This document shows, in pieces, positions 1 through 58,347 of a stretch of 64,000 nt of DNA. The position numbers were made by a program, and so were the translations under genes. The stretch lies in IMG/VR virus record IMGVR_UViG_3300034073_002120; one strand, 5' to 3'. This stretch comes from a virus. Lineage: Duplodnaviria > Caudoviricetes. Under the pieces are notes generated by a model. That model was not told where the DNA came from. It was given only the letters and a program-made list of their open reading frames with translations, and searched no databases. Position 1 is the stretch's first letter, and every line of letters starts with the position of its first letter.

Positions 1-925
1 CGTTGTATAATAAGTATTGGTTTTTACCTTCGTATGCAACACCTGTATATAAAGATGCACCACTTACTGAACCACTATCTTTTGATGTTCCAATTGTATT
101 ATGAATTGCAGTTGGATTAAGAATAATCAAACCTTGGTCTGGATAAAATAATCCAAAACCTTGTCCATTAGATGAATAGTTACTTGAAACTGTAGCAGCT
201 GCATCTTGTCCTAAGTTTAATGAACCACTTGCAACATAGAATACTCTACCTGCTTTACCGACCGTGTCAGAGAATTTCTTACCACTATCATCGATGAACG
301 TAGATACACCATTAGAACCACTTAATGATAATTGCCAGTTTCCAGCATCCATAGTTTCTTTGTATCTGGCACGTGATACGTTAATAACATAGATGTCTGA
401 TGAATCTAAAAGGTTTTCACCCGATGCGGAATCAAAAGTAAAGAATTGGTCATCTTGTTCTAACAATAAAGAACGATATTGTGCATATGTTGCTTTTGTT
501 GCTAAAGTAGATGTATCTGAATTTCCTAAACTAATTGAACCACTTGCATATTTGTGTCCGTATGCAATTGCAAATTGAACAGATGATGTTGTTGCAGTAT
601 CATATACATTTACATAATAGTTTGAACTATCTGCTGCTGCTTGCGTTGATGATGTGTAGAAAGTTGTTAAACTTCCAGTATCACCACTCCAAAGACCAGT
701 TGTTACAACTTCTACCTTACCTGTAATTTGGTCGAATTCACCAAATCTTTTGTAAATACCCGTTGTAATAGAACCACCTTGTGCTGCTAATTTATCACCA
801 CCAGTTAAGTATTGGTTAATAAGGTTTGTCAATTGTTCCGTAGTAACATTACCATTACTAGCTTGTAAATACGCTGCTAATTCTGATGTTAAATTTACTC
901 CGGCTTGTCCTGTAATTTGTGCCAT
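1..925 (-). CDS. Virion structural protein (tail/baseplate region), runs off the window start
   Basis: Open frame from ATG at 925 (MAQITGQAGVNLTSELAAYLQ...) to the window edge; Ser/Thr/Gly-rich; absent from the ORF track because truncated. Confidence 0.7.
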   Translation of the reverse strand, partial: MAQITGQAGVNLTSELAAYLQASNGNVTTEQLTNLINQYLTGGDKLAAQGGSITTGIYKRFGEFDQITGKVEVVTTGLWSGDTGSLTTFYTSSTQAAADSSNYYVNVYDTATTSSVQFAIAYGHKYASGSISLGNSDTSTLATKATYAQYRSLLLEQDDQFFTFDSASGENLLDSSDIYVINVSRARYKETMDAGNWQLSLSGSNGVSTFIDDSGKKFSDTVGKAGRVFYVASGSLNLGQDAAATVSSNYSSNGQGFGLFYPDQGLIILNPTAIHNTIGTSKDSGSVSGASLYTGVAYEGKNQYLLYN

Positions 926-942
926 ATTTTAATTTCTCCGTT

Positions 943-1566
943 TTATGCTACATATGTTACGGTCACTGGGATAGTTTGAGAACCACCTGTTTCGTTTCCA
1001 TAAACTGTTATAGTTGTCTTAATAGTTTGTGTGATATTTGGGTTAGGAATGAATGAGAATGTTAATCCTCTTTCTACTGCTGCAGTTGTTGTGATTTCAT
1101 CACCTAAGAATACCGGAATAGTACCAGTACCTGCTGCTAAACCACTACCAACAATTGAACCAGCATTTTTATTAGCTAACACAATTGTGTAACCACTTTG
1201 TGTATTACCACTTGGTGAAGTAGTTGGAGTTAAAGAAACTTGACCACTTCTTTGGTTTACTGAAATAGATGGAACACCAAATTCAACTTTTGGTATTTTT
1301 GTAGTTCCTTTTGGTAAAGTAACTAATTTGTATTTTAATACTTGTGTTTCATCTGGAGATGCTTCCGTTACGGGAATTGCTCTAATTGCTGCATCATAAT
1401 ATGCAGAACCTTTTGGATGAGCTGGTTCGTAAAGTGTATAATCGATTTCATCATCACCCAAAGCGAACTTTGTGATGTTTAATCCTTCACCTGATGCTAA
1501 TTTCTCTCTACCTTTTTTTGTAAGAATCGCATCGACCGTAATTTCGGTATTATCTAAATATGCCAT
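943..1566 (-). CDS. Tail-collar/tail-fibre-associated structural protein (DUF3751-like N-terminus)
   Basis: DAILTKKGREKLA...ITKFALGDD resembles the tail-collar fibre N-terminal motif; Ig-like C-terminus. Confidence 0.55.
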   Translation of the reverse strand: MAYLDNTEITVDAILTKKGREKLASGEGLNITKFALGDDEIDYTLYEPAHPKGSAYYDAAIRAIPVTEASPDETQVLKYKLVTLPKGTTKIPKVEFGVPSISVNQRSGQVSLTPTTSPSGNTQSGYTIVLANKNAGSIVGSGLAAGTGTIPVFLGDEITTTAAVERGLTFSFIPNPNITQTIKTTITVYGNETGGSQTIPVTVTYVA

Positions 1567-1590
1567 AATTTAATTTCCTTTTATTTCCTA

Positions 1591-1599
1591 TATAAATAT
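1591..1599 (-). promoter_or_regulatory. Putative late promoter ATATTTATA
   Basis: Same 9-mer on the coding strand upstream of genes at 1591, 6602, 13655, 17484, 32785(+), 34123(+), 48602, 52668, 54535, 56744, 58628. Confidence 0.55.
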
Positions 1600-1618
1600 A
1601 AGTATTCTATAATTTTAA

Positions 1619-4600
1619 TTAATCAACCTCTAAAATTGGTTCGCCACTTCCTCTACCAGTATCAGAAACTCTTAATACATTTGGATTAGTTGTGAATATT
1701 TGAACCGGTGAACCACCTAAAATATTGGTAGTTGCAGTTTGTTTTGAACCATTAAAGTAACTATTTTGTAAACCAGTTGTTAAATCACCAGTGTTTCTAT
1801 AATGTGTTGGAAAGTATCCATTTAATGGTGAAACTTCTACAATATTACCACCAACAATTGGTGCAGATGATTCATTACCATCAGAACCAGTAAATGGTAA
1901 AATCGTAACCTTATGTCTATATTTTGTAACCGATTGTAATTCAGTTCCCAAACTCTTATCTTGGTCATTTATATTAATCGGTGTTTTTTCAGTATAACTT
2001 TCTTTTATTAAATATACTTTACTTCTTTCTTTAATACGATTTCCAAATGAATCTATATAATTTCTTATTGTATTTCCGTTTTCGCCATATAATCCAAATC
2101 CAGCAACACCCATAGAGTTTCTATCTAATCCTACTTGTGTAAATTCTACATTATCATATGCACCTTTTACTGAACCTGTTATTTGAGCATCGATTGTTGA
2201 TGTAATCGTATCATATGTTGATTCAATTAGGGTTTCGGTTGTAGTATCTATCTCACCTTCATATGTTATATATTCCGCAGAAGCAGTAGAAACCAATTCC
2301 GTATTTATTTCTGCAATATAGTTTGAATTTACAGCACTCAATACAACGGATTCAGTAGTAGAAAGCGTTGTTGCAAAATTATTATAAGTTGCAGTAGTTA
2401 AAGTAGTTTCGTTTGTATCAATCGTAGTTTCATATTGATTTAATGAACCAGTTGGTTTGTTCCACTTAACTTTACTTCTTTCTAAAATATGTGGTTCAAT
2501 CAAAAGACCCGATGAAACTTTTGCTCTAGCAGGAACTAATGATTCTAACGTATCAAATAATGATTTATCAATATAACGAACTAATTGAATATACTCATGA
2601 GTATTCAAATTGTAACGTTGGAAATAATAATTTCTCAATTGTGTTAAATCTGAATATGAATCATTATATTCATCTGCAGGATTTCCAATATAATCATCTA
2701 TGTTAAATTCACCCAACGAACGAAGAATATCCATATTGATTTCTTTCATTGGCGAGAAGAATAATCCTAATTTATCCGAATCTATTGCACTTTGGTCATA
2801 TGATTTTTTCGTTGCACGAGATTTATAATTCAAATCACCTGTCAAAGTTTGTGATTCAAAACGGAATTTATTACCATACGTTAAACCAGATGATGGAACG
2901 TTTGCAGTTACACTTCTTTCATATGGAATATAATTATAAGGATATGTCGTATCACTAAAACCAACCGCATGTGCAGATGATGTATAATCCGTAATAATTG
3001 CAACGTTATTTATACTACCGGTTTGACTTAAATCTTTTGGATATTCAAAATCTAAACGGAATAATAAATCAACCGAAGATGCAGAAATATGTGAACCATC
3101 AATCGCATCAGGTAATAAAGTATGATTATTAATACGTGATTCTGAAAGTGGTGCTCTCCATAAACGGAACTCATCAATAGAACCGGTTAAAGTTTGACCA
3201 ATATATAATGTAGAACCACTTCCCCAACTTGTACTTCCGGTAATGTATGAAATAGATGAACTTGCTTGATTTCTAATTCTACCATCAAATCCTTCCTTAA
3301 AATAAACCTCAAATGTTTCGGATGTTGAACCGGTTCTTCTATTTACAACTACGTTAGCATAATCATCTTTGTAGAATGGTATATAATCAGTAGAAGATGC
3401 TGTAATATATCCACCATTTTGAATTTTGAATTCTACTTTAGCTAATGAACCAGTTCCAGGAACTAAATTTAATTCCCAACCACTACCACTAATTAATGAT
3501 TGTGTTGCTTCATTATTTACTGCTGTTAAACGGAATTCAACTGCGTTTGGATAATATCCATTATATGTTTGGAATGGAACTTTTAAGTATGATGATGAAT
3601 CAAACGCCAATGCACAAGTTCTATCATCAAACGTAAATTGAGTAGTTGCAGAACTAGCAGGGTCTTGCGGTCCGCCATACTCCATAATTGTTAATAATGA
3701 AACAGGAATACCATAACAAGCCATTGCTGCATGTAATGCTCTTTTCGTTCCTTTGTGTTTTAACAAATATGGTAAGTTGTTTAGAATTCTTCTCCATATT
3801 TGATGTTGTCTTGCTTTTCCACTCATCGATGTATGAGTAGTACCATCAGTATCTTTACCAAATGCATACTCCCATAGGAATTGTGATTGAACTCCCATAT
3901 CAGCATCCCAACCAAGAGATTCTAACATATGATATATCAATTCATTTCCAATACCATCTTCGTATTTATGTTCTAATTTTTTAGATTGAGAAATGTTTTT
4001 AATATGTGCCCACAAAATATCAAAGTGTTGACCCATCATCGTTAAGAAAAGGGTAAACTCTTCATTGTCTGCATCATTTGTGATATGTGCAGGAATATTA
4101 TTTGTTAATAAGTTTTTATTATTCGAATCATAGGTTTCCGTTTCATCAAGTATTCCATTATACCAACTAATTGCTTGAGAACTTGTTGGATTATATAAAC
4201 TACCAGTGTAATTTACTTTTGGATAGGTGTTTCCATTTTCAGATGAACTAACATATAACCATTTTTCAAATCCATCAAATCCATTTTTTAATTGTTGAAT
4301 TTGACCTTCATATGATTTGATTTCGTTTGAAGAGGCAATACTACCAGAAATAAATGAAGTAGATGAACTTACAAAGTTAATTTTGGTATTGTAACTTTCT
4401 ATTAACTGAATTTTGTAATAAAAGTTTCTAACGCGTTCTTCCGCAGATGAATATTTTACAAAATTTTCCCAATAAATTTCAGAACCGCTTTCGTATTGAA
4501 TATTTAAATTTTCTAATGAATAACCACTAGAACTTACAAATGTATTCACTAAATCAGTTGATGTGGCAGAACCACTTGCAATCAAATCATCTAATAATTG

Positions 4601-49026: not shown

Positions 49027-49103
49027 TGGTGGGCCAGATAGGAATCGAACCTATTACCTACTGATTATGAGTCAGTTGCTCTAACCGAATGAGCTACAAG
49101 CCC
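49027..49103 (-). tRNA. tRNA with CAT anticodon (probably Ile2/lysidine)
   Basis: GGGCTTG/TGGCCC acceptor, ACTGA-CTCATAA-TCAGT, encoded CCA. Confidence 0.9.
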
Positions 49104-49158
49104 TTAATCGTTTATATTAACGATAAAGTTGAATATCGTATGTTTCAACGATAAATAA

Positions 49159-49278
49159 GGTGCCGGTGGTAGGATTGGATACCTACACGATGTCCATTTC
49201 GGATACACCCCCTTACTAGTATTACAGGACGTCTAATAGTTTTATTCGAATTCAAACTATTCTTTCCGCCACACCGGC
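49159..49278 (-). ncRNA. tRNA-like RNA with hairpin inserted in D-loop and non-canonical anticodon and T loops
   Basis: Perfect GCCGGTG/CACCGGC acceptor, A73, long variable arm. Confidence 0.7.
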
Positions 49279-49283
49279 ATATG

Positions 49284-49357
49284 TGGAGATGATAGGAATC
49301 GAACCTACGACCCTCTGCGTGCAAGGCAGATGCTCTAGCCAACTGAGCTACATCCCC
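49284..49357 (-). tRNA. tRNA-Ala(TGC)
   Basis: Canonical cloverleaf, G3-U70. Confidence 0.95.
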
Positions 49358-49364
49358 AATATTG

Positions 49365-49449
49365 TACCTGAAGAGGGACTTGAACCCACACGCCCATTAC
49401 TGGACAACAGATTTTAAGTCTGTCTTGTCTACCATTCCAACATTCAGGC
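49365..49449 (-). tRNA. tRNA-Leu(TAA)
   Basis: Cloverleaf with long variable arm. Confidence 0.93.
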
Positions 49450-49454
49450 AAATT

Positions 49455-49862
49455 TTATTTTACTTTATAAACTTTCACTTTTGAAAGTTTTGTTTGTTTG
49501 TCTTTTGGGTTGATTAAAATATCAATACGTTTTTTGTATCTCTTATTCATCACATCCCTTACCACATATTCACCATTGTACTTACCGGCATTTCTCAAAC
49601 GAACTCTCTGGCCGAACTTTAACTTACGTTTTAAATCCCTACTTACTGCAATGATTCTATGTTTCTTAGGATTACGTTTACTAATCTTAAATCCACTTGC
49701 TGTAATGTTTGGTGTAGAATCGGTTTCTTCTGCTGTTGCTTTGTATGTTGTGACAGTTACTATTCCTAATTCTTCTAAATTACTTTCTTCTATTTCTACA
49801 TTTGTGGTTGTTACTTCTAATGGAAATAACAACATAATAAAACTTATGAAAAGTTGTTGCAT
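49455..49862 (-). CDS. 3D-domain (MltA-like) protein
   Basis: VTVTTY, TASG, IAVSRD, VVRD, RIDI. Confidence 0.8.
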   Translation of the reverse strand: MQQLFISFIMLLFPLEVTTTNVEIEESNLEELGIVTVTTYKATAEETDSTPNITASGFKISKRNPKKHRIIAVSRDLKRKLKFGQRVRLRNAGKYNGEYVVRDVMNKRYKKRIDILINPKDKQTKLSKVKVYKVK

Positions 49863-49910
49863 AATTTTTGGGTTTGGTTTATTTTAAGGTTTAAAGTTTT
49901 AACTTTTATG

Positions 49911-49982
49911 TAGCCCCACTAAGAATCGAACTTAGAAATCCTCTTTAGAAGAGAGGTGTTATATCCATTTAACTATGGAGCC
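49911..49982 (-). tRNA. tRNA-Arg(TCT)
   Basis: CCTCT-CTTCTAA-AGAGG. Confidence 0.92.
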
Positions 49983-49983
49983 A

Positions 49984-50060
49984 TGGCGGTGTATACGAGA
50001 TTCGAACTCGTGGTCTCTTCCGTGACAGGGAAGCATGTTGGGCCTCTACACCAATACACC
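49984..50060 (-). tRNA. tRNA-Asp(GTC)
   Basis: Cloverleaf, G73, CCA. Confidence 0.95.
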
Positions 50061-50064
50061 GATT

Positions 50065-50169
50065 GCAGGGGATGTTTCCATTCTAGTGGAACAACCCCCG
50101 ATTGGTTTTCATCAACTGATGAATCCACTCTATGGTTACTATCTGACTCTTTTCGAACTTTCGGGGCTC
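50065..50169 (-). ncRNA. Candidate structured RNA
   Basis: CCCCGA/TCGGGG pairing, TTCATC/GATGAA hairpin, terminal GGGG..TTCC/GGAA..CCCC hairpin. Confidence 0.4.
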
Positions 50170-50195
50170 GTATCATTCAATTTCAGTAATCATTG

Positions 50196-50268
50196 AGCCT
50201 CCTACCGGGTTCGAACCAGTGACATTCTCATTACAAATGAGATGCTCTACCAACTGAGCTAAGGAGGC
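50196..50268 (-). tRNA. tRNA-Thr(TGT)
   Basis: Canonical cloverleaf. Confidence 0.95.
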
Positions 50269-50273
50269 AATTT

Positions 50274-50458
50274 ATGTATCAGTTCCATACCGACCTATTA
50301 GGAACTATTAGGGTTTCTCGGACGAGGTGCACAACCCAAATCGGCTATAATGTGTTATCAGTTACTTGGCTTCCACCTTCGTTGGAATTATTAAACGGGA
50401 TTTGAACCCACCTCATTGATGTATGCCTACATCAACTTTCACTGCACATTTGATACAT
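50274..50458 (-). ncRNA. 185-nt multi-stem RNA with internal T-loop motif
   Basis: ATGTATCA/TGATACAT closing stem, TTGATGTA/TACATCAA hairpin, GGGTTCAAATCCC. Confidence 0.6.
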
Positions 50459-50460
50459 TG

Positions 50461-50532
50461 TACTCCCAACGGGATTCGAACCCGTGACTCATCCGTGAAA
50501 GGGACGTGACTTAACCGCTTGTCGATGGGAGC
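50461..50532 (-). tRNA. tRNA-Glu(TTC)
   Basis: Canonical cloverleaf. Confidence 0.95.
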
Positions 50533-50599
50533 AGTTTCCAATTTTGATGGGCTCTTCGATTAGAGTGTTTCATCTAACCAGCACTTGAGATTGGGAACT
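50533..50599 (-). ncRNA. Candidate closed-stem small RNA
   Basis: AGTTCCCAAT/ATTGGAAACT ends; GGTTAGA/TCTAATC internal hairpin. Confidence 0.45.
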
Positions 50600-50604
50600 C
50601 CTTG

Positions 50605-50727
50605 TTGTCAATACTGGATTCGAACCAGTGATAGTCTCCATCAGCACATTGATAAAGCAGAGACTCCGTTCTTCTGTCAGAAAGTTTGAATCAATGTTTC
50701 GGGGCGTGTTCCTCTCGCCTTTTGACA
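50605..50727 (-). ncRNA. tRNA-like RNA with expanded anticodon and variable arms
   Basis: TGTCAA/TTGACA acceptor, GGCG/CGCC D-arm, canonical ACTGG-TTCGAAT-CCAGT T-arm. Confidence 0.7.
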
Positions 50728-50735
50728 ATTTTATT

Positions 50736-50808
50736 GGGTGTAAGGACGGTATCGAACCGACTTCCCTGGCTCCACAAACCAGTACATCACCTTAATGCTT
50801 CAAACACC
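50736..50808 (-). tRNA. tRNA-His(GTG)
   Basis: G-1/C73, CTGGT-TTGTGGA-GCCAG. Confidence 0.88.
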
Positions 50809-50844
50809 ATATTGTTTTAATAACCATCATCTCAAAGAACATTG

Positions 50845-50877
50845 TAAAGATACGAAATTATTTTAACATTTCCTAAT
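50845..50877 (-). promoter_or_regulatory. Bacteroidota-type promoter followed by boxA-like GTTCTTTGAG
   Basis: ATTAGGAAA...TTCGTATCTTTA; boxA-like site at 50831-50840. Confidence 0.7.
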
Positions 50878-50896
50878 CTTTTTTAACATTTTTTTG

Positions 50897-50969
50897 TTGC
50901 GTAGGGTGGGAATCGAACCCACTTATTTTGGCTTATGAGACCAATGAAATACCTTACCTCCCCCTCGCG
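50897..50969 (-). tRNA. tRNA-Met(CAT), atypical acceptor
   Basis: TTGGT-CTCATAA-GCCAA, canonical T-arm. Confidence 0.8.
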
Positions 50970-51002
50970 ATGTATTAGGGAACGTTCTCCCTAATTGTTT
51001 AA

Positions 51003-51035
51003 CAAATATACGAATTTATTTTAATATATCCAAAT
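51003..51035 (-). promoter_or_regulatory. Bacteroidota-type promoter
   Basis: ATTTGGATA...TTCGTATATTTG. Confidence 0.75.
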
Positions 51036-51041
51036 AAATCT

Positions 51042-51500
51042 TTATTTATTTTTTACTAAATGGTCTGCACAATATGTTGCAATAGGACCTAATGATTTGT
51101 ATCTTACATTATATCCCATACCTTCAACCATACCAACTGCTTGTCTGAATACTTCGTTAGATTTGAAACGTGGGTCTGGATTTAAATCCACATCAATCCA
51201 CTTTGGTTTTTTAACACCATTCTCTTTTAAGTATTCAGCAGTTTCAATTGCGAACCAAACTTCTTGTAATAACCTTACTGAACGAACTCTTTCTCTTTCA
51301 GTATTCCATCTTCTATATAAAACGTGTCCTCCTTTACCTTGTCTATATAATGCAACTACAATTGCGTAAATAGTTTTAGTACCGGAGTTTTGTGAATCAC
51401 AACCAATTAAGATTTCAGCATCACTATACGTTTCCATATATTCTTTGATATATGTTACTAATTGAATTTCTTCGCCAGATTGTAATTTTTTAAAAACCAT
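51042..51500 (-). CDS. RNase H-like YkuK/DUF458 family protein
   Basis: ILIGCDSQ, RLLQEV, DVDLN, ADHL. Confidence 0.8.
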   Translation of the reverse strand: MVFKKLQSGEEIQLVTYIKEYMETYSDAEILIGCDSQNSGTKTIYAIVVALYRQGKGGHVLYRRWNTERERVRSVRLLQEVWFAIETAEYLKENGVKKPKWIDVDLNPDPRFKSNEVFRQAVGMVEGMGYNVRYKSLGPIATYCADHLVKNK

Positions 51501-51524
51501 TTTATTTCCTTTTTTAATAAGTAG

Positions 51525-51598
51525 TGTCCATAGTAGGATTCGAACCTACACAAACTGGTTTCTAAGACCAGTGCGGTTGCCAATTACGCCATACGGAC
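51525..51598 (-). tRNA. tRNA-Leu(TAG) lacking the long variable arm
   Basis: CTGGT-CTTAGAA-ACCAG; 5-nt variable loop. Confidence 0.8.
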
Positions 51599-51607
51599 AA
51601 TTTTCAG

Positions 51608-51693
51608 TAGAGAGTGAGAGGCTCGAACTCTCGCGACTTTCACATCCTACCTCGTTAGCAATGAGGCCCCTTCACCAACTTGGGTAACTCTCT
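51608..51693 (-). tRNA. tRNA-Ser(GCT)
   Basis: Class II cloverleaf. Confidence 0.9.
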
Positions 51694-51759
51694 ATGTTGT
51701 ATAATATATTATTCATTATATACCTTTTTAGGGGTTTTTGTATAATATATTATCCATCG

Positions 51760-51829
51760 TTGCGTGTTTGAGGTTCGAACTCAATTGACTTTCCTTATGA
51801 GAGAAAGTTCTTTTCCACTAAGTCACGCA
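51760..51829 (-). tRNA. tRNA-Met(CAT), degenerate (short D region, 7-bp anticodon stem)
   Basis: ACTTTCT-CTCATAA-GGAAAGT; TTGAG-TTCGAAC-CTCAA. Confidence 0.65.
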
Positions 51830-51888
51830 GTTTTGTGGAATTGAACCACACTCTCCTCGTCAGGCGATACGACCAGTATCCTTTATCG

Positions 51889-51960
51889 AGTCACGTATTG
51901 GATTCGAACCAATGTAAGAGGTTTTGCAGACCTCCGCCTAACCAACTCGGCCAACCTGAC
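51889..51960 (-). tRNA. tRNA-Cys(GCA)
   Basis: Cloverleaf, U73. Confidence 0.93.
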
Positions 51961-51968
51961 ATTTAATG

Positions 51969-52040
51969 TAGTTCTATTAGGATTCGAACCCAAACTTTTT
52001 CATCCGTAGTGAAAGGTGCTATCCGTTACACCATAGAACC
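51969..52040 (-). tRNA. tRNA-Arg(ACG)
   Basis: TTTCA-CTACGGA-TGAAA. Confidence 0.92.
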
Positions 52041-52044
52041 ATTA

Positions 52045-52242
52045 TTATTTCCATTGAGTCTTTCGGTTGTGTTTCCAACTTTTATACTCTCTGAACTTAT
52101 GTGAGTAAATTGGTTTACCATTTCCATGTCTACCCCAAATCTTTGAAGGTGCACAATCATAATACCAACTACCACATCTTTTAGAACAAATGAAACAATA
52201 GTTCCATTCCATTCTCATTCTCTTTACTCTTTCTTCTTTCAT
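52045..52242 (-). CDS. Small basic Cys-containing protein
   Basis: YCFICSKRCG; ends YKSWKHNRKTQWK. Confidence 0.55.
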   Translation of the reverse strand: MKEERVKRMRMEWNYCFICSKRCGSWYYDCAPSKIWGRHGNGKPIYSHKFREYKSWKHNRKTQWK

Positions 52243-52293
52243 TTTACATTAGGTTTGTTTACCTAATGTTTGTCAAATAATTGTTTCATAGTT

Positions 52294-52686
52294 TTACATT
52301 TTATTTTCCTCATAGTGATGTATTCTATGACAATTGGCACATAATACATCACACTTTTCTATTTCCTTTAAGAACTTTTCTTTGGATACTGATAATTTAG
52401 AACTAGCCAAAGTGAATTCTTTTTTAGATGAATCTCTATGATGAAAATCTAAAGCTGCAGGATGTGAAAATCCACATTTACTACATTTAAGGTTTGATTT
52501 ATATTCTACATACCATTCCTTAAATTCTTTTCTTCTTTGAGATTGTCTTATTTTAGCTTTCTCTCTTTCCACTTCTTTATTTCGTTCATACCATTCATTT
52601 CTATATGAACGCATCTTATCAGCGTTTTGTTCTTTCCATTCTTTTGTTGCCATAATATATTCTTTAATATAAATATAGTATCTCAA
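52294..52686 (-). CDS. HNH endonuclease
   Basis: CSKCG, LDFHH, LCANCHRIHH; likely start MATKEW at 52653. Confidence 0.85.
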   Translation of the reverse strand: MRYYIYIKEYIMATKEWKEQNADKMRSYRNEWYERNKEVEREKAKIRQSQRRKEFKEWYVEYKSNLKCSKCGFSHPAALDFHHRDSSKKEFTLASSKLSVSKEKFLKEIEKCDVLCANCHRIHHYEENKM

Positions 52687-52718
52687 ACAAAAAAGTTGTT
52701 TTGGAAACTTTTATTTAG

Positions 52719-52789
52719 CACGGGTAGTAGGATTCGAACCCACATCAAAGCTTTTGGAGAGCCGTATGCTACCATTGCACCATACCCAT
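52719..52789 (-). tRNA. tRNA-Trp(CCA)
   Basis: CTCCAAA loop, G73. Confidence 0.9.
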
Positions 52790-52796
52790 AATTAAT

Positions 52797-52858
52797 CAAG
52801 AAGATAGCCAGAAATTAGTGACGTCAAATCTCTTTAAGCTATATGAACTATCTTCTTG
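52797..52858 (-). ncRNA. Candidate closed-stem small RNA
   Basis: 11-bp perfect terminal stem CAAGAAGATAG/CTATCTTCTTG. Confidence 0.5.
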
Positions 52859-52887
52859 TTAGGATTGGTTAATTACTCCAATCTTCG

Positions 52888-52961
52888 TTGGTAGTGCGGG
52901 ATTCGAACCTGCCACCTTCTCGGTATCAGCGAGATGCTCTAACCAAATGAGCTAACTACCA
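52888..52961 (-). tRNA. tRNA-Ile(GAT)
   Basis: TCTCG-CTGATAC-CGAGA. Confidence 0.93.
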
Positions 52962-52990
52962 ATAAGTGGTGGATGTATGTTCATCACATA

Positions 52991-53533
52991 CTATTGGGTT
53001 TCCACCAAACCCCTTGTCATTTCAATGAACTTATTTCTATATTCATCTATTTTATCAATCACTTCATCTTTATATTTCGAATGAACATATTGATGATGTG
53101 TTGGACAAAGTGGTATAAGATTTTTAGGGTCATTGTTATAGTGATTTTCATCATAGTGATGAACTGCAACTATTTTACTTTCCCCACAAATTACACATTC
53201 CTTTGTATGATGTTCAAAACAAGTACTTCTATACGAATCATCTTTCCAATTTGGATTTTGTTTTCCACTTCTGAAAAATGTGTTTGAACATTTATAGGAA
53301 CAAGTAGTTTTTTCTCTCTTATTACCAATTTGTGTTTCAAATTCATTACCACATACTGGACAATTCTTTTTAATTGCTTCATATTTAGGTAATCTTACTT
53401 TAAGATGGTCTATGGATATATTCTTTTCAGAAACCATATCATAGAACTTCTTTTGTGTTTTGCCATTATAATATCCGTATAACTTTTTAATTGCTTCGGA
53501 TTTTGTTTTACATTCTTTTATTATATTTTCCAT
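52991..53533 (-). CDS. HNH endonuclease with zinc ribbon
   Basis: CPVCG...TCSYKC; CVICG, VHHYD, NLIPLCPTHH. Confidence 0.85.
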   Translation of the reverse strand: MENIIKECKTKSEAIKKLYGYYNGKTQKKFYDMVSEKNISIDHLKVRLPKYEAIKKNCPVCGNEFETQIGNKREKTTCSYKCSNTFFRSGKQNPNWKDDSYRSTCFEHHTKECVICGESKIVAVHHYDENHYNNDPKNLIPLCPTHHQYVHSKYKDEVIDKIDEYRNKFIEMTRGLVETQ

Positions 53534-53591
53534 ACTAATAAATATAACAAAATCGTAAAAACATAATTTGACAATGTAATCATTACGATTG

Positions 53592-53666
53592 TAGGGTAGA
53601 GAGGACTCGAACCTCCACGATGTCTTGCTCCCAAAGCAAGCGGCCTAGCCATTGGCCCACTACCCT
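53592..53666 (-). tRNA. tRNA-Pro(TGG)
   Basis: CTTGC-TTTGGGA-GCAAG. Confidence 0.92.
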
Positions 53667-53721
53667 ATGGTGGATGGATTATTTTTTTAAAGTAGAATTC
53701 GCCAACCTCAAAACTACTATG

Positions 53722-53795
53722 TGAACCCGAATGGATTCGAACCATTGACTCCCTCATTAAAAGTGAGGTGCTCTAACCAACTGAGCTACGGATTC
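53722..53795 (-). tRNA. tRNA-Lys(TTT)
   Basis: Canonical cloverleaf. Confidence 0.95.
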
Positions 53796-53800
53796 AATTG

Positions 53801-53873
53801 TGGGACCTCAAGGAATCGAACCTTGTCCTTCCGCTCTTCAGGCGGACGTACGCACCAGCTATACGAAAGTCCC
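53801..53873 (-). tRNA. tRNA-Phe(GAA)
   Basis: TCCGC-CTGAAGA-GCGGA. Confidence 0.92.
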
Positions 53874-53879
53874 ATTTTG

Positions 53880-53961
53880 TGCCGCCGGTAGGACTCGAAC
53901 CTACGAACTCCGAAGAGGAGGGATTTACAGTCCCTTGCAATTGCCACTATGCGACGTCGGC
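53880..53961 (-). tRNA. tRNA-Tyr(GTA)
   Basis: Class II cloverleaf. Confidence 0.93.
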
Positions 53962-53967
53962 GTTAAA

Positions 53968-54044
53968 TGGTAGGAGATATAGGATTCGAACCTATGACCC
54001 TTTGGATGTAAACCAAATGCTCTAACCAACTGAGCTAATCTCCT
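53968..54044 (-). tRNA. tRNA-Val(TAC)
   Basis: Canonical cloverleaf, CCA. Confidence 0.95.
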
Positions 54045-54050
54045 AAATTG

Positions 54051-54121
54051 TTACTCGAGCAGGATTCGAACCTACCCTAAATGCCCCAAAAACACTTGTG
54101 CTACCGCTACACCATCGAGCA
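54051..54121 (-). tRNA. tRNA-Gln(TTG)
   Basis: U1-A72, AGTGT-TTTTGGG-GCATT. Confidence 0.85.
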
Positions 54122-54136
54122 ATTTAAAATTTATTG

Positions 54137-54208
54137 AGCGAGTAGTCAGAATCGAACTGACATATCCTACTTGGAAGGAAGGCATAATAGCCGTTATACT
54201 ATACTCGC
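54137..54208 (-). tRNA. tRNA-Gly(TCC)
   Basis: GCG/CGC acceptor, U73. Confidence 0.92.
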
Positions 54209-54226
54209 GTTTCAAAGAACTAATTG

Positions 54227-54298
54227 AGGGTAGGGAGAATTTCGAAATCTCGACCTGATGATTAACAGTCATCTGCTCTGCCTCTGAGCTACCAACCC
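54227..54298 (-). tRNA. tRNA-Asn(GTT)
   Basis: GATGA-CTGTTAA-TCATC. Confidence 0.9.
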
Positions 54299-54303
54299 GT
54301 AAA

Positions 54304-54339
54304 TAAAAAAACCCTTAACTTTTTTATCAGTTAAGGGTT
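54304..54339 (-). terminator. Intrinsic terminator directly upstream of the Asn-Gly-Gln-Val-Tyr-Phe-Lys tRNA run
   Basis: aacccttaac-tgataaaaaa-gttaagggtt plus T run. Confidence 0.8.
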
Positions 54340-54371
54340 CTTCAAATATTTTCTATTTAAATCTTACATCA

Positions 54372-54530
54372 TTACCATCCAGATGCTTCCCTTAACGTTG
54401 TACTAATATAATCCACCTTGCCCAAATTGAACACTGCCGGAGTTGCTATCGTACTAAACATACGATTCCCTTGCCACTCACATCTTTGTGTAGGCAGTTG
54501 GTTGTTCATATGTAATGCTAAGTTTTTCAT
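54372..54530 (-). CDS. 52-aa putative leader peptide
   Basis: MKNLALHMNNQLPTQRCEWQGNRMFSTIATPAVFNLGKVDYISTTLREASGW behind ATATTTATA at 54535. Confidence 0.55.
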   Translation of the reverse strand: MKNLALHMNNQLPTQRCEWQGNRMFSTIATPAVFNLGKVDYISTTLREASGW

Positions 54531-54599
54531 CTTGTATAAATATCTAAAAATTATTTTTTCGTAACGTTTGTTTGTTTTTTATTATTAGCTAAATAAAAA

Positions 54600-54667
54600 A
54601 ACTAATCCATCTTCAAAATACACCTACAAGTCATGCTCTGGTTAATATCAGCCTCGAAGGATTAGTT
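54600..54667 (-). ncRNA. Candidate closed-stem small RNA
   Basis: AACTAATCC/GGATTAGTT terminal stem extended by CTTC/GAAG. Confidence 0.45.
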
Positions 54668-54677
54668 CGTTTAAAAA

Positions 54678-54802
54678 ATGAAAGATTTGTAGGGTGGTTC
54701 TTTCAAAAGGACTAGCTACATCCGTTGTTTACCATCAACACTAATTCGTATTGGTTGCGATTCTTTAAGGCAAAAATCCCCTACTGAAAACCATATCTTC
54801 AT
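54678..54802 (-). ncRNA. Candidate multi-stem RNA
   Basis: ATGAAGAT/ATCTTTCAT and GTAGGG/CCCTAC nested stems. Confidence 0.45.
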
Positions 54803-54884
54803 ACTATTTGTCTTTTTTATTTAAGTGGAATTTTCAGTTATTGGAGAGATACACCCAACCTGTCTGTCGTAAACCACTACGAAG

Positions 54885-54925
54885 CTATCTATATTGGAAT
54901 CGAACCAACTTTAACCATTTAGATA
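54885..54925 (-). ncRNA. Minimal tRNA mimic (acceptor stem plus T-arm, no anticodon arm)
   Basis: TATCTA/TAGATA, ATGGTTAAA linker, GTTGG-TTCGATT-CCAAT. Confidence 0.55.
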
Positions 54926-54932
54926 AAAATAT

Positions 54933-55766
54933 AAGGATGAGAATACTCCATATTGTGAACCAGCTTTATAAGGGTTATTAGTTGCCTTAATTTCCACTTC
55001 CTTTTGAGAAGTACCAATTCAATGTGGGTAAGTAATGCCTACCACTCATAAAGTTACAAACTACTCTCTCTTTACTCTACCTCTTCGAGTTTGCCAACCC
55101 GATTCACACCTCGCGATGCTAGAAGCTTTTCGAAAGAATCACATTTCCCTTGAGAGGATTTGTGGCAGGGAACATCTCCCTACTAAGTACACACCTTTCG
55201 TCTGCAACTGGTAACCACTTTCTCTTTATTTGTTTTTATAGTTTGCACCTAAAGCAAATTGAGTTTGGTTTGTAGATGGATTCAGGTAGTGGATTACCAC
55301 TAGCTCCGTTCCACTTTAAAGAACGGAATACTATACTACCCGATACGGCATCTCTACCGTCATACTTTAAGACTACTTCAATACCCACTCTTTGGTGAGA
55401 GGTAGGTAAGGATAATAACAACACCACTTGTACATCATCATACCTTTCGGTTTTAAGTAACCTTTAATATTGAATCACACAATAATAAGGAGAGATTAAG
55501 TCCTTACTTTTTGTATTAACTCTATGGATTATTTTTATTGGTGTTCCCACCTCAACTGAACTTCTACTTAGCCCAGTCATCAAACCATTTCGCTACGGAG
55601 TTACCCTCACTACTAAGGTCTAATGATATTCCACTTGCATACTTGAGTTCCATTTCTGAAACCGCAAACCGTCTAACCAAACGATTCACTTTATCCTTGT
55701 TTCCAAGTTTATTTAACCACCATATGCGGCGGGTATGCATTATGTAGAACGAGTCTACTATATGCA
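54933..55766 (-). ncRNA. Giant structured ncRNA, probably GOLLD
   Basis: ~830 nt, GC above background, dense GNRA-capped hairpins (cttggaaacaag, accgaaaggt), 3' GGTTCACAATATGGAGTATTCTCATCC; own promoter; inside a tRNA array. Family call from recall, needs cmsearch. Confidence 0.72.
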
Positions 55767-55818
55767 ATATTTTCAATAATTTTAAAGAACGTTTTTTGTA
55801 ATCCTTTTGATTACTTTG

Positions 55819-55851
55819 TAAAGATACGAAATGTTTTTCACATTTCCAAAT
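55819..55851 (-). promoter_or_regulatory. Promoter of the giant RNA, followed by hairpin and boxA-like GTTCTTTAAA
   Basis: ATTTGGAAA...TTCGTATCTTTA; gtaatc/gattac hairpin; boxA-like site at 55781-55790. Confidence 0.75.
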
Positions 55852-55861
55852 ATTTTTACAA

Positions 55862-56074
55862 TTATTTTTTAATTATTTTTTTCACATTTTCAACGTGGTC
55901 ATCAATTAACTTTGATAATCTTTGATTACTAAGTAAACTAAGATACAAATTGAAGAACAACATTGCTGAGATGAATGCATATGTATCGAATCTTTTTTCG
56001 ATTACACTTATTATACCACTTAATAATGACATAACACATCCAGTAATTAAAAGAACTTTTTGAAACTTTACCAT
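55862..56074 (-). CDS. Small membrane protein
   Basis: Two hydrophobic helices; behind promoter 56161. Confidence 0.55.
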   Translation of the reverse strand: MVKFQKVLLITGCVMSLLSGIISVIEKRFDTYAFISAMLFFNLYLSLLSNQRLSKLIDDHVENVKKIIKK

Positions 56075-56160
56075 AATTTATTTTTTTTTAAATTGAACAA
56101 TACTACTTTCGTTTTGTTGTTTGATTCATAGATTGCGTTTGGTTGGTTTCTTTTACTTTG

Positions 56161-56193
56161 TAAAGATACGAAAACTTTTTGATATTTCCAAAT
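56161..56193 (-). promoter_or_regulatory. Bacteroidota-type promoter
   Basis: ATTTGGAAA...TTCGTATCTTTA. Confidence 0.75.
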
Positions 56194-56214
56194 CTTTTTT
56201 AAAGTTTTTTTTTT

Positions 56215-56280
56215 GAGTAAGTTAGTATGACGTTTGGCTCTTCACCCAAAGGTTTAGATAACCGGTTCTCTTACTTACTC
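56215..56280 (-). ncRNA. Candidate closed-stem small RNA
   Basis: GAGTAAGT/ACTTACTC 8-bp terminal stem; TTTGG/CCAAA internal hairpin. Confidence 0.45.
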
Positions 56281-56284
56281 TTAG

Positions 56285-56356
56285 TTGCAGGGGAAGGATT
56301 CGAACCTCCGACCTATGGGTTATGAGCCCACCAAGCTACCACTGCTCTACCCTGCG
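56285..56356 (-). tRNA. Initiator tRNA-fMet(CAT)
   Basis: C1.A72 mismatch; GGG/CCC anticodon stem. Confidence 0.93.
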
Positions 56357-56458
56357 ATATAATATTTATTAATAATTGAAATGTTGTACATTTACGGACG
56401 TCTTATTTACGATTAGTCTACTATTCCACAATTATTATATTTCTCAAAGAACGTTTTT

Positions 56459-56534
56459 GTAATCAGATTCAACCATTTGGTATAGTAAACTTCGTCACTC
56501 TTACTTCAGGTACATTTTTACGATTTCTGATTAC
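56459..56534 (-). ncRNA. Candidate closed-stem leader RNA
   Basis: GTAATCAGA/TCTGATTAC 9-bp stem right after promoter; boxA-like site at 56444-56452. Confidence 0.45.
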
Positions 56535-56538
56535 TTTG

Positions 56539-56571
56539 TAAAGATACGAAATTAATTTCACAATTCCAAAT
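56539..56571 (-). promoter_or_regulatory. Bacteroidota-type promoter
   Basis: ATTTGGAAT...TTCGTATCTTTA. Confidence 0.75.
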
Positions 56572-56685
56572 CTTTTTTCATTTATTTTTTTTATTATTAA
56601 AATAATGGTATCCGGCTTTATTCCTTACGGGGTCACATAGTCGGTTTTATTACTATTGGCTTCAACCTTTATTTCAATAACAATA

Positions 56686-56718
56686 CAAAGATACGAAATG
56701 TTTTTGATATTTCCAAAT
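56686..56718 (-). promoter_or_regulatory. Bacteroidota-type promoter
   Basis: ATTTGGAAA...TTCGTATCTTTG. Confidence 0.78.
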
Positions 56719-56775
56719 CTTTTGTAAAGTTTTTTTTCGTATGTATAAATATATAAAAATATACAAAACGTAAAA

Positions 56776-57147
56776 TGGTGGAGATGGAGGGAGTCGAACC
56801 CTCGTCCAAAATATGGTTTAATAAACCTCATTCACAAGCTTAGTTAGTTTTTCTTAACTAACAAAATATATAAAGATTTATACATTCATTATCATTAATG
56901 TTTCCAATTCGATTTCGGGTTCAATTGGGTTTCCACCTGATTTCACATTCTATTTCAAGTCCCACGATGTGTGCGGGAGTAATTAGGCAGCTACTGCGTA
57001 ATCAGCACCAACGAATGCCATAGCATCTTCGAAGGTCATTGTAGATAATTCTACTGCGTTTATTGTTCGATAGGTGTTTAAGGATTTCCATCTAATCCTG
57101 CTTGCAATTATACTAACACTTCATACCTGTCAAAACCGGGCATCCCC
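56776..57147 (-). ncRNA. ssrA: tmRNA; tag AVELSTMTFEDAMAFVGADYAVAA* at 56983-57057
   Basis: 5' GGGGATG...TTTGACAG, 3' GGTTCGACTCCCTCCATCTCCACCA with G3-U70; internal frame ending YAVAA-stop. Confidence 0.93.
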
Positions 57148-57172
57148 ATATATTAAAGAACTTTTTACTTTT

Positions 57173-57344
57173 GCTGTAATGGGAGGATTCGAACACTCCA
57201 CGGTGCGATTCAGTTAGTAACACATTCTTGCAAGATGGTGGTCTACCCCATATTACTAACCTATTTCGTTCTCACCACCCTCGAGACAGGAGGGCTTGTC
57301 TGCCAGATTTGCACACGTACAAATCATTTTCCAACACACTACAA
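57173..57344 (-). ncRNA. 172-nt tRNA-like RNA (D-loop hairpin insert, CTGTCTC loop, very long variable arm)
   Basis: TTGTAGT/ATTACAG acceptor, CCCTC/GAGGG stem, GGTTAGTAA/TTACTAACT, TTCGAAT T-loop. Confidence 0.75.
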
Positions 57345-57353
57345 TTTAATTTG

Positions 57354-57439
57354 CGGAAGGGGTAGGATTCGAACCCACGGTACCTTGCAGTACACTTGAT
57401 TTCAAGTCAAGCGCGATAGACCAACTCTGCCACCCTTCC
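57354..57439 (-). tRNA. tRNA-Ser(TGA)
   Basis: Class II cloverleaf, G73. Confidence 0.95.
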
Positions 57440-57452
57440 ATTATAATATATA

Positions 57453-57683
57453 TTATATATTATGTTTTTCTACTCTACGTTTAGCTTCTTCTGCTTCCTT
57501 CACCATTTTAATCCATGTTATAGTTACATCGACTGGTGCTAAAATACCTGCCATAACTAATACCATTATTGAATCTAACTCTGGTGATGTTCCGTAATCT
57601 ACACCTCGTGTCTTATATTTTTTATTTAATTGATAAAAACAATAAATAATACAAAGAACGTAATAGGTAATAAACCAATTCAT
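57453..57683 (-). CDS. Small membrane protein (start reassigned to MNWFITYY)
   Basis: Two hydrophobic helices; the upstream part of the track ORF overlaps a structured region. Confidence 0.55.
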   Translation of the reverse strand: MNWFITYYVLCIIYCFYQLNKKYKTRGVDYGTSPELDSIMVLVMAGILAPVDVTITWIKMVKEAEEAKRRVEKHNI

Positions 57684-57710
57684 AATTTTATTTTTAGTGG
57701 TTAATAAGTT

Positions 57711-57912
57711 TGAGTTTGTGAGGAATGAATCCAATTAAATAGGTTATCCGAGTTTCAAAGAGGTTTGAGTGTTTTGAAATTACGCGACAAGTGACCCTAA
57801 TATTGTTGAAGTTTGTTAATTATTCATTATCTTATTCGTTCATCCGCTATTTGGTATCATAGTAGAATTGTAAGAATAAACTAATTAGTCAGTTTCAAAC
57901 CCCACTCACTCA
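57711..57912 (-). ncRNA. Candidate structured RNA downstream of the DIP1984-like gene
   Basis: TGAGT...ACTCA terminal pairing; repeated TTTGAAACT/TTTCAAA and ACTCAAAC motifs. Confidence 0.4.
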
Positions 57913-57918
57913 ATATTT

Positions 57919-58347
57919 TTAGATTTGGGTATTCGAATTATGAATATCCAATTCATTTTGCAACTCTTCAATTGTTTCACCCAACGTGTCCACTTTGTTT
58001 TGAATATCCACAACATTCAATTCCACTTCCTTTACTGAAACGACACTTCCGTATCTTTCATTTATTTTACCTTCTTCGGTTGGAACTTTCTTTAATTCCT
58101 TTACCAACCCTTTCAACTCTGCCAATGCAAAGATTTTATCATACACCGGTTGGTTTGCTTTATGAATTTTTGCTTTCAATTTAACTAATTCAAATTGCAA
58201 TGTGTCGATTTTATCCAATGTATCTTTCATTGAATATCTACGAGGGTTTCCTTCCTCAATCGAGTTATACTTTTTCAAAATCTCATATTGAGCTTTTAAA
58301 TCAGTAACTAATTTGTTTTTCTGTTTTAATGCTTGTTTTACGTTCAT
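57919..58347 (-). CDS. DIP1984/septicolysin-like helical protein
   Basis: MNVKQALKQKNKL...LVKLKAKIHKAN...ELQNELDIHN pattern. Confidence 0.5.
   Translation of the reverse strand: MNVKQALKQKNKLVTDLKAQYEILKKYNSIEEGNPRRYSMKDTLDKIDTLQFELVKLKAKIHKANQPVYDKIFALAELKGLVKELKKVPTEEGKINERYGSVVSVKEVELNVVDIQNKVDTLGETIEELQNELDIHNSNTQI

Follow-up and report, generated by a model that had tools for sequence, protein, structure and literature searches.

Allo-tRNAs and tRNA-Sec-like tRNAs are long-armed tRNAs of bacteria and phages that carry G73, have GUC among their commonest anticodons and have been proposed to act as missense suppressors or regulatory RNAs (Mukai et al., 2017, PMC5389517; PMC7609411). Allo-tRNAs have acceptor/T helices of 8/4 or 9/3 base pairs (bp) and a variable arm of ordinary class II length, and they are not reported from Bacteroidota (PMC5389517). 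The tRNA cluster of phage T4 contains the small stable RNAs C and D (species 1 and 2), the role of which is unexplained (PMC3014915). YrlA is a Ro60-bound tRNA mimic with D and T arms that is also found on phages; its acceptor-like stem is closed, its ends lie in the Ro-binding stem and its gene stands beside rsr (PMC4201824). A motif of a different kind is the dimerization initiation site (DIS) of HIV-1, a GC-rich palindrome of at least 6 nucleotides (nt) in an apical loop with purine flanks, the sequence of which varies with self-complementarity kept (PMC7357161). Here we analyzed a 64,000-nt stretch of DNA, hereafter the window, from a virus of the Caudoviricetes (Duplodnaviria; IMG/VR record IMGVR_UViG_3300034073_002120). 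At positions 57173–57344 of the minus strand it contains a tRNA-like RNA gene with a giant variable arm, called the element below.

The element belongs to a large RNA family of hosts and phages. It is secure that the gene is real, tRNA-shaped and expressed, and that it is built for tRNA-like maturation. As far as sequence comparison can, the pattern of change among homologues demonstrates strong selection on the cloverleaf, on the base of the giant arm and on the nucleotides of the tRNA tertiary fold. The best explanation, to which we would give about an even chance, is a functional gene of a conserved family of class-II-shaped, Asp-marked tRNA-like RNAs that has a specialized, non-routine role in Bacteroidota and their phages.

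A conserved family of tRNA-like RNAs

The original prediction, made from the window sequence alone, had described a 7-bp acceptor stem, a Leu/Ser-type D arm with an inserted hairpin, a perfect anticodon stem below a loop with pyrimidines at positions 37 and 38, a variable arm of about 75 nt with a long stem, and a bulged T arm. All of these features are present, in the RNA sense of the minus strand, and are given here together with the neighboring RNA genes.

57173–57344, minus strand: whole tRNA-like RNA gene, 172 nt including a U at position −1 and the G73-C74 end; 140 bits with covariance model R1 (E = 1e-38)
57337–57343, minus strand: 5′ strand of the acceptor stem, UGUAGUG, pairing with 57175–57181
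57175–57181, minus strand: 3′ strand of the acceptor stem, CAUUACA, pairing with 57337–57343
57173–57174, minus strand: G73 (discriminator) and C74, both invariant in 109 sequences; CCA not encoded
57296–57334, minus strand: D arm with a 3-bp stem, UUG (57332–57334)/CAA (57296–57298), and a class II, Leu-type loop
57299–57305, minus strand: conserved D-loop motif UGGCAGA
57306–57325, minus strand: optional 20-nt D-loop hairpin, GAUUUGUA-CGUG-UGCAAAUC
57278–57294, minus strand: anticodon arm, stem CCCUC/GAGGG and loop CUGUCUC (57283–57289) with GUC, U37 and C38
57202–57276, minus strand: 75-nt variable arm including the GGUUAGUAA/UUACUAACU stem
57237–57249, minus strand: conserved apical hairpin GGGGUAGACCACC with the motif GGG-U-W-GACCAC
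57226–57235, minus strand: perfect palindrome UCUUGCAAGA with A on both flanks, predicted self-pairing site
57182–57199, minus strand: T arm, GGAG(U)G/UUCGAAU/CCUCC, with one bulged U
57353–57439, minus strand: tRNA-Ser(UGA), conserved upstream neighbor
56776–57147, minus strand: transfer-messenger RNA (tmRNA), 25 nt downstream, adjacency not conserved

From its base outwards, the variable arm consists of GGUG/CACC, CGA/UCG, an internal loop (AAUA versus GAA), a 12-bp helix and an apical domain. With about 30% GC, the window is rich in AT, and it looks like phage DNA. On its minus strand are 25 tRNA genes called by ARAGORN, a GOLLD RNA (54934–55343), the tmRNA and the tRNA-Ser(UGA), and the element is located between the last two. 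ARAGORN made no call on the window copy, and Rfam gave no match to it even at E ≤ 10, RF00005 (gathering score 29 bits) included. BLAST of the element against GenBank phages returned no match, and a 5.5-kb query around it recovered ordinary tRNAs and a stretch beside GOLLD, nothing else. A scan for sigma-70 promoters and terminators stayed at shuffle level. Since the single-sequence fold of the element was not better than that of shuffles (z = −1.1), support for the element was taken from the comparison of homologues.

A neighboring open reading frame (ORF; 57919–58347) was used as bait and led to 24 related IMG/VR contigs. A BLAST search located the element in 18 of these 24 loci, and in two further loci matched by pattern on the same contigs, downstream of tRNA-Ser(UGA) and with an identity of 72–99%. 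In most of them it follows the tRNA gene directly; about 200 nt with a small ORF separate the two in L001, L005 and L011, and about 60 nt in L015. Comparison of these relatives by eye revealed compensatory changes in the acceptor, D, anticodon and arm helices, and the D-loop hairpin was swapped for other hairpins or absent. As had been proposed together with the original prediction, a covariance model was built and phage metagenome contigs were searched. The model, R1, was made from seven hairpin-less copies with a structure supplied by us; such copies were chosen because the optional hairpin misaligned the 5′ ends in MAFFT. A loose pattern derived from the D loop and the anticodon arm served for the homologue scan and was matched by at least 120 viral and at least 120 bacterial contigs. 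Among the matches listed, R1 scores ranged from 60 to 177 bits, compared with at most about 46–56 bits for ordinary tRNAs.

Pairing statistics, which cover the cloverleaf and the base of the variable arm, were obtained from 109 distinct model-aligned sequences, the set to which all values of conservation below refer. Pairing was found in 93.2% of cells, against 44–52% with partners slid by one to three columns. Changes on both sides occurred in 37 of 43 pairs, and none of 500 shuffles matched the observed values. In the acceptor stem all seven pairs showed such changes (99.6% of cells paired). Two of the three D-stem pairs (AU, GC and UA types), two anticodon-stem pairs and four of the five T-stem pairs covary, and the T loop is invariant. 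The basal helices of the variable arm were paired to 100% and 96.6%, with covariation in all seven pairs; the middle helix is less uniform (78% paired).

Positions without any exception are U8, G9, the G-C pair of the D stem, UGGCAGA, G34-U35-C36-U37-C38, the T loop, U48, G73 and C74. A14-A15 are invariant or nearly so, and U1-A72, G2-C71 and U3-A70 are conserved to about 98%. Position 33 is U in 95 sequences, the window copy among them, C in 13 and G in one; position 32 is C or U. The variable arm ranges from 18 to 110 nt family-wide. Its internal-loop A residues are invariant, and in roughly half of the aligned copies, viral and bacterial, the apical hairpin motif is nearly unchanged.

Likeness to tRNA-Asp and to class II tRNAs

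The cloverleaf of a tRNA is complete: the acceptor has 7 bp, the anticodon and T stems have 5 bp each, and a 7-nt anticodon loop and a T loop are present. A variable arm of more than 10 nt, a 3-bp D stem and a Leu-type A15-U48 pair are hallmarks of class II, and the best-scoring ordinary tRNAs for model R1 were tRNA-Leu. With class II tRNA-Leu the family shares U8, G9, the 3-bp D stem, a loop with GG and then AGAC, A15-U48 and the long arm. It differs by G73 in place of A73, by an Asp-like anticodon loop and by an arm that is several-fold longer and contains conserved internal motifs. Neither a Leu, Ser or Tyr anticodon nor a Leu-type A73 was found among the 109 sequences, in which GUC and G73 are invariant.

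Canonical tRNA-Asp(GUC) has in common with the family GUC, C38, G73, G2-C71, the 7/5 acceptor/T helix, the T loop and the G73-C74 gene end. The family has U37 instead of A37, U1-A72 instead of G1-C72, a Leu-type 3-bp D stem, a large D loop and an arm of 18–110 nt instead of 5 nt. The anticodon loop is that of the host canonical tRNA-Asp, CUGUCAC, save for A37U. The identity set of aspartyl-tRNA synthetase (AspRS) in Escherichia coli comprises G34, U35, C36, C38, G73, G2-C71 and G10, the last being minor. All of these but G10 are present and invariant or nearly so in the family; position 10 is A, G or U. A purine at position 37 is near-universal in tRNAs, and a decoding-competent loop with purine 37 and U33 is not what we found, as U37 is invariant and C33 recurs.

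At the 3′ end, 22 of the 25 window tRNA genes terminate in N73-C74 followed by a non-CCA trailer, like the element, and the other three encode CCA. The element copy of contig L111, the complete 184-kb phage G154, ends in G-CCA, and the tRNA genes of that phage encode CCA. Because nearly all neighboring tRNA genes end in N73-C74 and the L111 copy encodes G-CCA, we conclude from these gene ends that G73 is the discriminator and that the gene is built for tRNA-type 3′ maturation. Position −1 is U or C in 100 of 109 sequences, which made an acceptor of 8 bp, with C74 as the discriminator, conceivable; it is ruled out on the same grounds. The gene is thus built and placed like neighboring tRNA genes, with an N73-C74 end and within the array just after tRNA-Ser. 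Along the tRNA genes of the window (49027–57439, minus strand) the full CCA is rarely encoded and C74 almost always. Phage G154 carries another long-armed tRNA, a 95-nt tRNA-Ile(UAU) (L111, 3590–3684, minus strand) with a variable arm of about 20 nt and a class-I-like D arm; its anticodon is among those common in allo-tRNAs.

No description of the family was found in Rfam 15 or by full-text searches of the literature, an Rfam search at permissive thresholds with the window region and bacterial copies returned no family, and a 2020 review of non-canonical tRNAs contains nothing like it. In contrast to the allo-tRNAs, the family has a 7/5 helix (all acceptor pairs with covariation), arms of up to 110 nt, an invariant U37 and a linked AsnC-like regulator (see below). 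Membership in that group was rejected, since the acceptor has 7 bp, the T stem 5 bp, and the G-CCA of L111 fixes G73. T4 RNA C resembles the element in its tRNA-like T arm and paired ends. It reaches 11.9 bits with R1 over part of its length and is without this type of anticodon arm, and homology was ruled out at this score. We know of no host counterpart of T4 RNAs C and D. Identity with YrlA or other Y RNAs was ruled out on topology, as the RNA ends form the acceptor stem in the present family; moreover, no rsr was seen among the flanking genes scanned in three bacterial loci, and there was no Rfam match.

Presence in RNA libraries

Parts of the window stretch occur in six freshwater metatranscriptome runs, four of which were examined by contig coverage. 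RNA contigs of these four runs cover tRNA-Met, the tmRNA and the element and not the flanking ORFs (57458–57753, about 0; 57976–58345, at most about 3); uncovered stretches were not counted as absence. The summed depth over the conserved core of the element was 500–4000 in the four runs. A single RNA contig spans 57172–57348, and another bridges tRNA-Ser and the element. The family is therefore clearly present as RNA, and the lack of expression that the original prediction had named as a possible objection does not apply. Between two small ORFs with depth of about 0, the stretch 57754–57901 reached an RNA-contig depth of 42–470 in three runs. It could be a 5′ untranslated region or a small RNA; folding of the intergenic region 57745–57910 gave no structure signal (z = 0.0).

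An AsnC-family regulator accompanies the RNA gene in Bacteroidota

Almost all bacterial matches listed are from Bacteroidota, isolates included, with carriers in Chitinophagaceae, Sphingobacteriaceae, Cytophagales, Cyclobacteriaceae, Saprospiraceae and a few Flavobacteriales. In an even sample of the phylum, about 14–17 of 151 genomes carry the RNA. In a tree of the conserved columns the bacterial copies cluster by host family, and the label viral or bacterial changes 6 times, compared with 36 times after shuffling. The grouping by host family and the few label changes point to a family inherited vertically in its hosts, with few long-lived phage lineages. Several bacteria (L150, L231, L242, L253 and others) have two to five tandem copies of the gene, about 170–550 nt apart.

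A gene of the Lrp/AsnC family is located divergently upstream in 84 of the 120 bacterial loci among the matches listed, with its start about 130–340 nt from the D-loop motif; among the other loci several are truncated, or are chance matches from other phyla. The best NCBIfam match of the regulator is the AsnC equivalog (160 bits, cut-off 227), and Lrp reaches 47 bits. In the 151-genome sample, close homologues of the regulator (53–66% identical) form one clade with 100/99 support, and this clade is confined to RNA-carrying genomes save one genome without detected RNA. The regulator gene does not adjoin the RNA gene in five clade genomes, of which four carry the RNA elsewhere and the fifth is without detected RNA. 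This co-occurrence of regulator and RNA when unlinked is new here. More distant regulator paralogues in RNA-less genomes adjoin other genes, two of them divergently beside asnB. In these two RNA-less Bacteroidota (L296, 1498–3439; L299, 1462–3433) the AsnC-family paralogue is 43–46% identical to the RNA-linked regulator and divergent with asparagine synthetase B. We infer that an amino-acid-responsive regulator, probably related to asparagine or aspartate, acts on the RNA gene. The original prediction had treated the RNA as a phage oddity; it appears instead to be a host gene that is passed on vertically and has an AsnC-family regulator of its own.

Phage loci

No AsnC-like regulator gene was found in any viral locus examined, and solitary viral copies are flanked by phage genes such as those for endolysin, helicase, exonuclease, terminase and PhoH. 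On these grounds, the possibility that viral copies are misfiled host fragments was ruled out. Around 69 of 123 distinct viral copies there is no tRNA within 450 nt. Where an upstream tRNA is present it is tRNA-Ser in 37 of 54 copies, and much of this is shared ancestry. Four complete relatives of the window phage encode no class IIa/IIb synthetase, be it AspRS or the asparaginyl- (AsnRS) or seryl-tRNA synthetase (SerRS), so that any charging must use host enzymes. On a 183-kb phage contig (L271), a full serS (844–2103, plus strand; TIGR00414, 420 bits) ends 3 nt before the element (about 2106–2266), and an endolysin gene follows; this adjacency is a single case among about 260 loci.

The original prediction had placed the element directly upstream of a tmRNA. 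This holds for the window, where the tmRNA begins 25 nt downstream, and is not a conserved arrangement among relatives. A functional tmRNA link was rejected, as the adjacency was seen only in the window, L001 and L011. The phage tmRNA itself encodes an unusually long tag of 24 residues, AVELSTMTFEDAMAFVGADYAVAA; relatives have similar or short tags (GVNNYALAA). The insertion between tRNA-Ser and the element in L001 (6997–7211), L005 and L011 is about 208 nt long, contains a small ORF of about 65 amino acids and joins at window position 57349/57351. RNA contigs in two runs carry this inserted form. The GOLLD RNA (264 bits) lies within the tRNA region of the window. Just upstream of it, positions 55511–55730 are 72–74% identical to the uncultured huge phages LR745206 and LR756502 and may be a part of GOLLD outside the Rfam model.

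Virus-specific changes and a palindrome at the arm tip

Several structural traits set viral copies apart from bacterial ones. A bulged T stem was found in 28 of 50 viral and in 1 of 59 bacterial copies, and D loops of at least 20 nt in 16 of 50 compared with 1 of 59. At the tip of the variable arm, 2–3 nt after the GACCAC motif, a perfect palindrome of 6–12 nt stands in 82 of 91 viral copies, compared with 5 of 84 bacterial copies and 11% of shuffled segments. This virus-specific palindrome is new here. The 32 distinct palindromes have 16 different central hexamers between them and are GC-rich (68%), apical in the arm and flanked by purines (93% on the 5′ side, 88% on the 3′ side). Several of them have only 6 nt (GCGCGC, GCUAGC, GCAUGC, UGUACA, GUGCAC). 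Since 6-nt palindromes cannot form a hairpin, the conserved trait is full self-complementarity through the center and not a stem-loop.

The palindromes show the sequence features of a DIS, namely apical self-complementarity of at least 6 nt that is kept through sequence change, with purine flanks, and both GUGCAC and GCGCGC occur here. The difference is that the present case concerns a tRNA-like RNA of a DNA phage and not an RNA genome, and that dimerization is only predicted. In an energy estimate, UCUUGCAAGA alone forms no hairpin (0.0 kcal/mol), and its self-duplex is at −14.9 kcal/mol. The isolated palindrome was used for this estimate, as the cofold of the full-length dimer was domain-swapped and not trusted. 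By this model the phage RNAs probably form homodimers through the palindrome.

Proposed role and alternative explanations

On balance, a non-routine role is most likely, at slightly better than an even chance, because U37 is invariant, C33 occurs now and then, the giant arm is conserved, viral copies have bulges, hairpins and the palindrome, canonical tRNA-Asp makes the element redundant and a regulator is dedicated to it. According to this proposal RNase P would cut the RNA, CCA would be added and a host synthetase would charge it. AspRS would be the likeliest charging enzyme, because G34-U35-C36, C38 and G73 are invariant and G2-C71 is nearly so. In the host the RNA might act in a circuit that answers to the amino-acid (Asp/Asn) status, with the conserved arm as a handle for a partner. 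The phage copy would be a regulator-free version expressed from the tRNA operon, and the palindrome at its arm tip would let two RNA molecules pair. The phage may thereby supply or override the host function during infection, possibly with a bivalent mimic. A more specific version, which we put forward tentatively and regard as rather doubtful, is that a kissing loop joins two tRNA bodies and that this bivalent mimic engages a dimeric host partner and takes over the AsnC-governed circuit in infection. Possible partners of this kind would be the alpha2 enzymes AspRS or SerRS, or ribosome pairs.

Several points weigh against a non-routine role of this kind, or against parts of it. The alignment used for pair counting was fitted to our own structure; given the slid controls and the counts per helix, the cloverleaf and the two basal arm helices nevertheless appear secure. 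In the RNA libraries most depth came from phage relatives or hosts, with G for A at window position 57281 (T>C), and contigs give no RNA ends or levels. The palindrome could act at the DNA level, which is less simple because a protein would have to co-evolve with each palindrome, a requirement that self-pairing of RNA does not have. G10, of minor weight for Asp identity in E. coli, is not conserved. AspRS, a class II synthetase, approaches its tRNA from the side of the variable loop, where a 75-nt arm might hinder it. Short viral members of about 91–98 nt are called tRNA-Asp by ARAGORN, and one of them reaches 39.3 bits on RF00005. Phage G154 has six tRNAs, and none but the element bears an Asp anticodon. 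Finally, aminoacylation, processing, dimerization and partner are all inferred.

The short members and phage G154 in particular speak for a genuine decoding tRNA-Asp isoacceptor with a class II body, which would read GAY codons, perhaps conditionally, and be carried by phages like other tRNAs. So do the intact cloverleaf, the tertiary-fold nucleotides, the 7-nt loop with invariant GUC, the G73-C74 end and the location inside tRNA arrays, and a strong C36-G pair might tolerate U37. We consider this explanation unlikely, if well worth keeping in mind. U37 is invariant and C33 occurs in 13 of 109 sequences, arms reach 110 nt, 56% of viral copies have the T-stem bulge and 32% D-loop hairpins, and the palindromic tip has no role in decoding. 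A canonical class I tRNA-Asp is also present in all three host genomes checked and in the window, which makes the element redundant in hosts and large arrays; in many phages it is the sole tRNA-like gene of its locus. A dedicated regulator of the amino-acid type would be unusual for a tRNA gene. The statement of the original prediction that the RNA is unlikely to decode is therefore plausible on the conserved positions, the long arm, the viral bulges and hairpins and the coexisting tRNA-Asp; it does not sit well with the short members that pass as tRNA-Asp or with the sole Asp-anticodon tRNA of G154. An altogether less probable idea is a SerRS substrate like the allo-tRNAs, providing serine for a tRNA-dependent conversion or for low-level recoding of Asp to Ser. 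The long arm with G73 (PMC7609411), the GUC anticodon, one of those predominant among allo-tRNAs (PMC5389517), the upstream tRNA-Ser and the one phage with serS in front of the element are consistent with it. However, the core is of the Leu type (A15-U48, best matches to tRNA-Leu), the helix is 7/5 and not 8/4 or 9/3, serS is adjacent once in about 260 loci, the synteny with tRNA-Ser is largely shared ancestry, and the invariant anticodon loop with U37 and C38 is left unexplained.

An off-ribosome asparagine platform, charged by AspRS, amidated from Asp to Asn by GatCAB, which needs U1-A72, and controlled at the gene by AsnC, would account for the (near-)invariance of U1-A72, G73 and GUC, for the coupling of RNA and regulator and for the two related regulators beside asnB in RNA-less genomes. 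GatCAB also reads D-loop size, whereas the D loop here is large and variable, and phage copies and palindrome are left unexplained, so that we find this explanation improbable too. The original prediction had suggested, among other roles, a decoy or shield against host tRNA-targeting nucleases or sensors of uncharged tRNA. Such a role would suit an RNA that very many Bacteroidota phages carry, often with no other tRNA-like gene at the locus, and that has virus-specific changes in its viral copies. Colicin-E5-type nucleases read Y33-G34-U35, a motif that the element contains. Nevertheless, the family appears to be a regulated, vertically inherited host gene that was not found on mobile elements, no linked nuclease or defence gene was seen in the loci inspected, and host and phage copies do not differ in the anticodon loop. 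The decoy idea thus found no support and is as improbable as the asparagine platform. The other role that the original prediction had named, a regulator binding a synthetase or the ribosome, may still apply. A decaying tRNA pseudogene or a chance fold would agree with the shuffle-level fold of the single sequence and with the silence of ARAGORN and Rfam on the window copy. Decay had also been considered in the original prediction, for the case that homologues lack compensatory changes. Instead, more than 200 homologues, compensatory changes in every helix, invariant loops and presence in RNA libraries were found, and homologue scores and covariation exclude the pseudogene reading for practical purposes.

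Significance

A tRNA body with a structured arm of 75–110 nt, an invariant pyrimidine at position 37 and its own regulator of the amino-acid type fits no described tRNA class. Soil and freshwater Bacteroidota carry the family widely, metatranscriptomes contain it in abundance, and it ranks among the commonest tRNA-type genes in the phages of these bacteria. Genome annotation now misses these genes or labels the short ones tRNA-Asp. With this family, the recruitment of a tRNA paralogue to a job outside the standard ones can be put to a direct test. The virus-specific traits document the remodeling of a host RNA by phages, and the palindrome makes a falsifiable prediction of RNA homodimerization. 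If this prediction is true, the phage RNAs would be the first natural tRNA-type RNA to work as a programmed homodimer.

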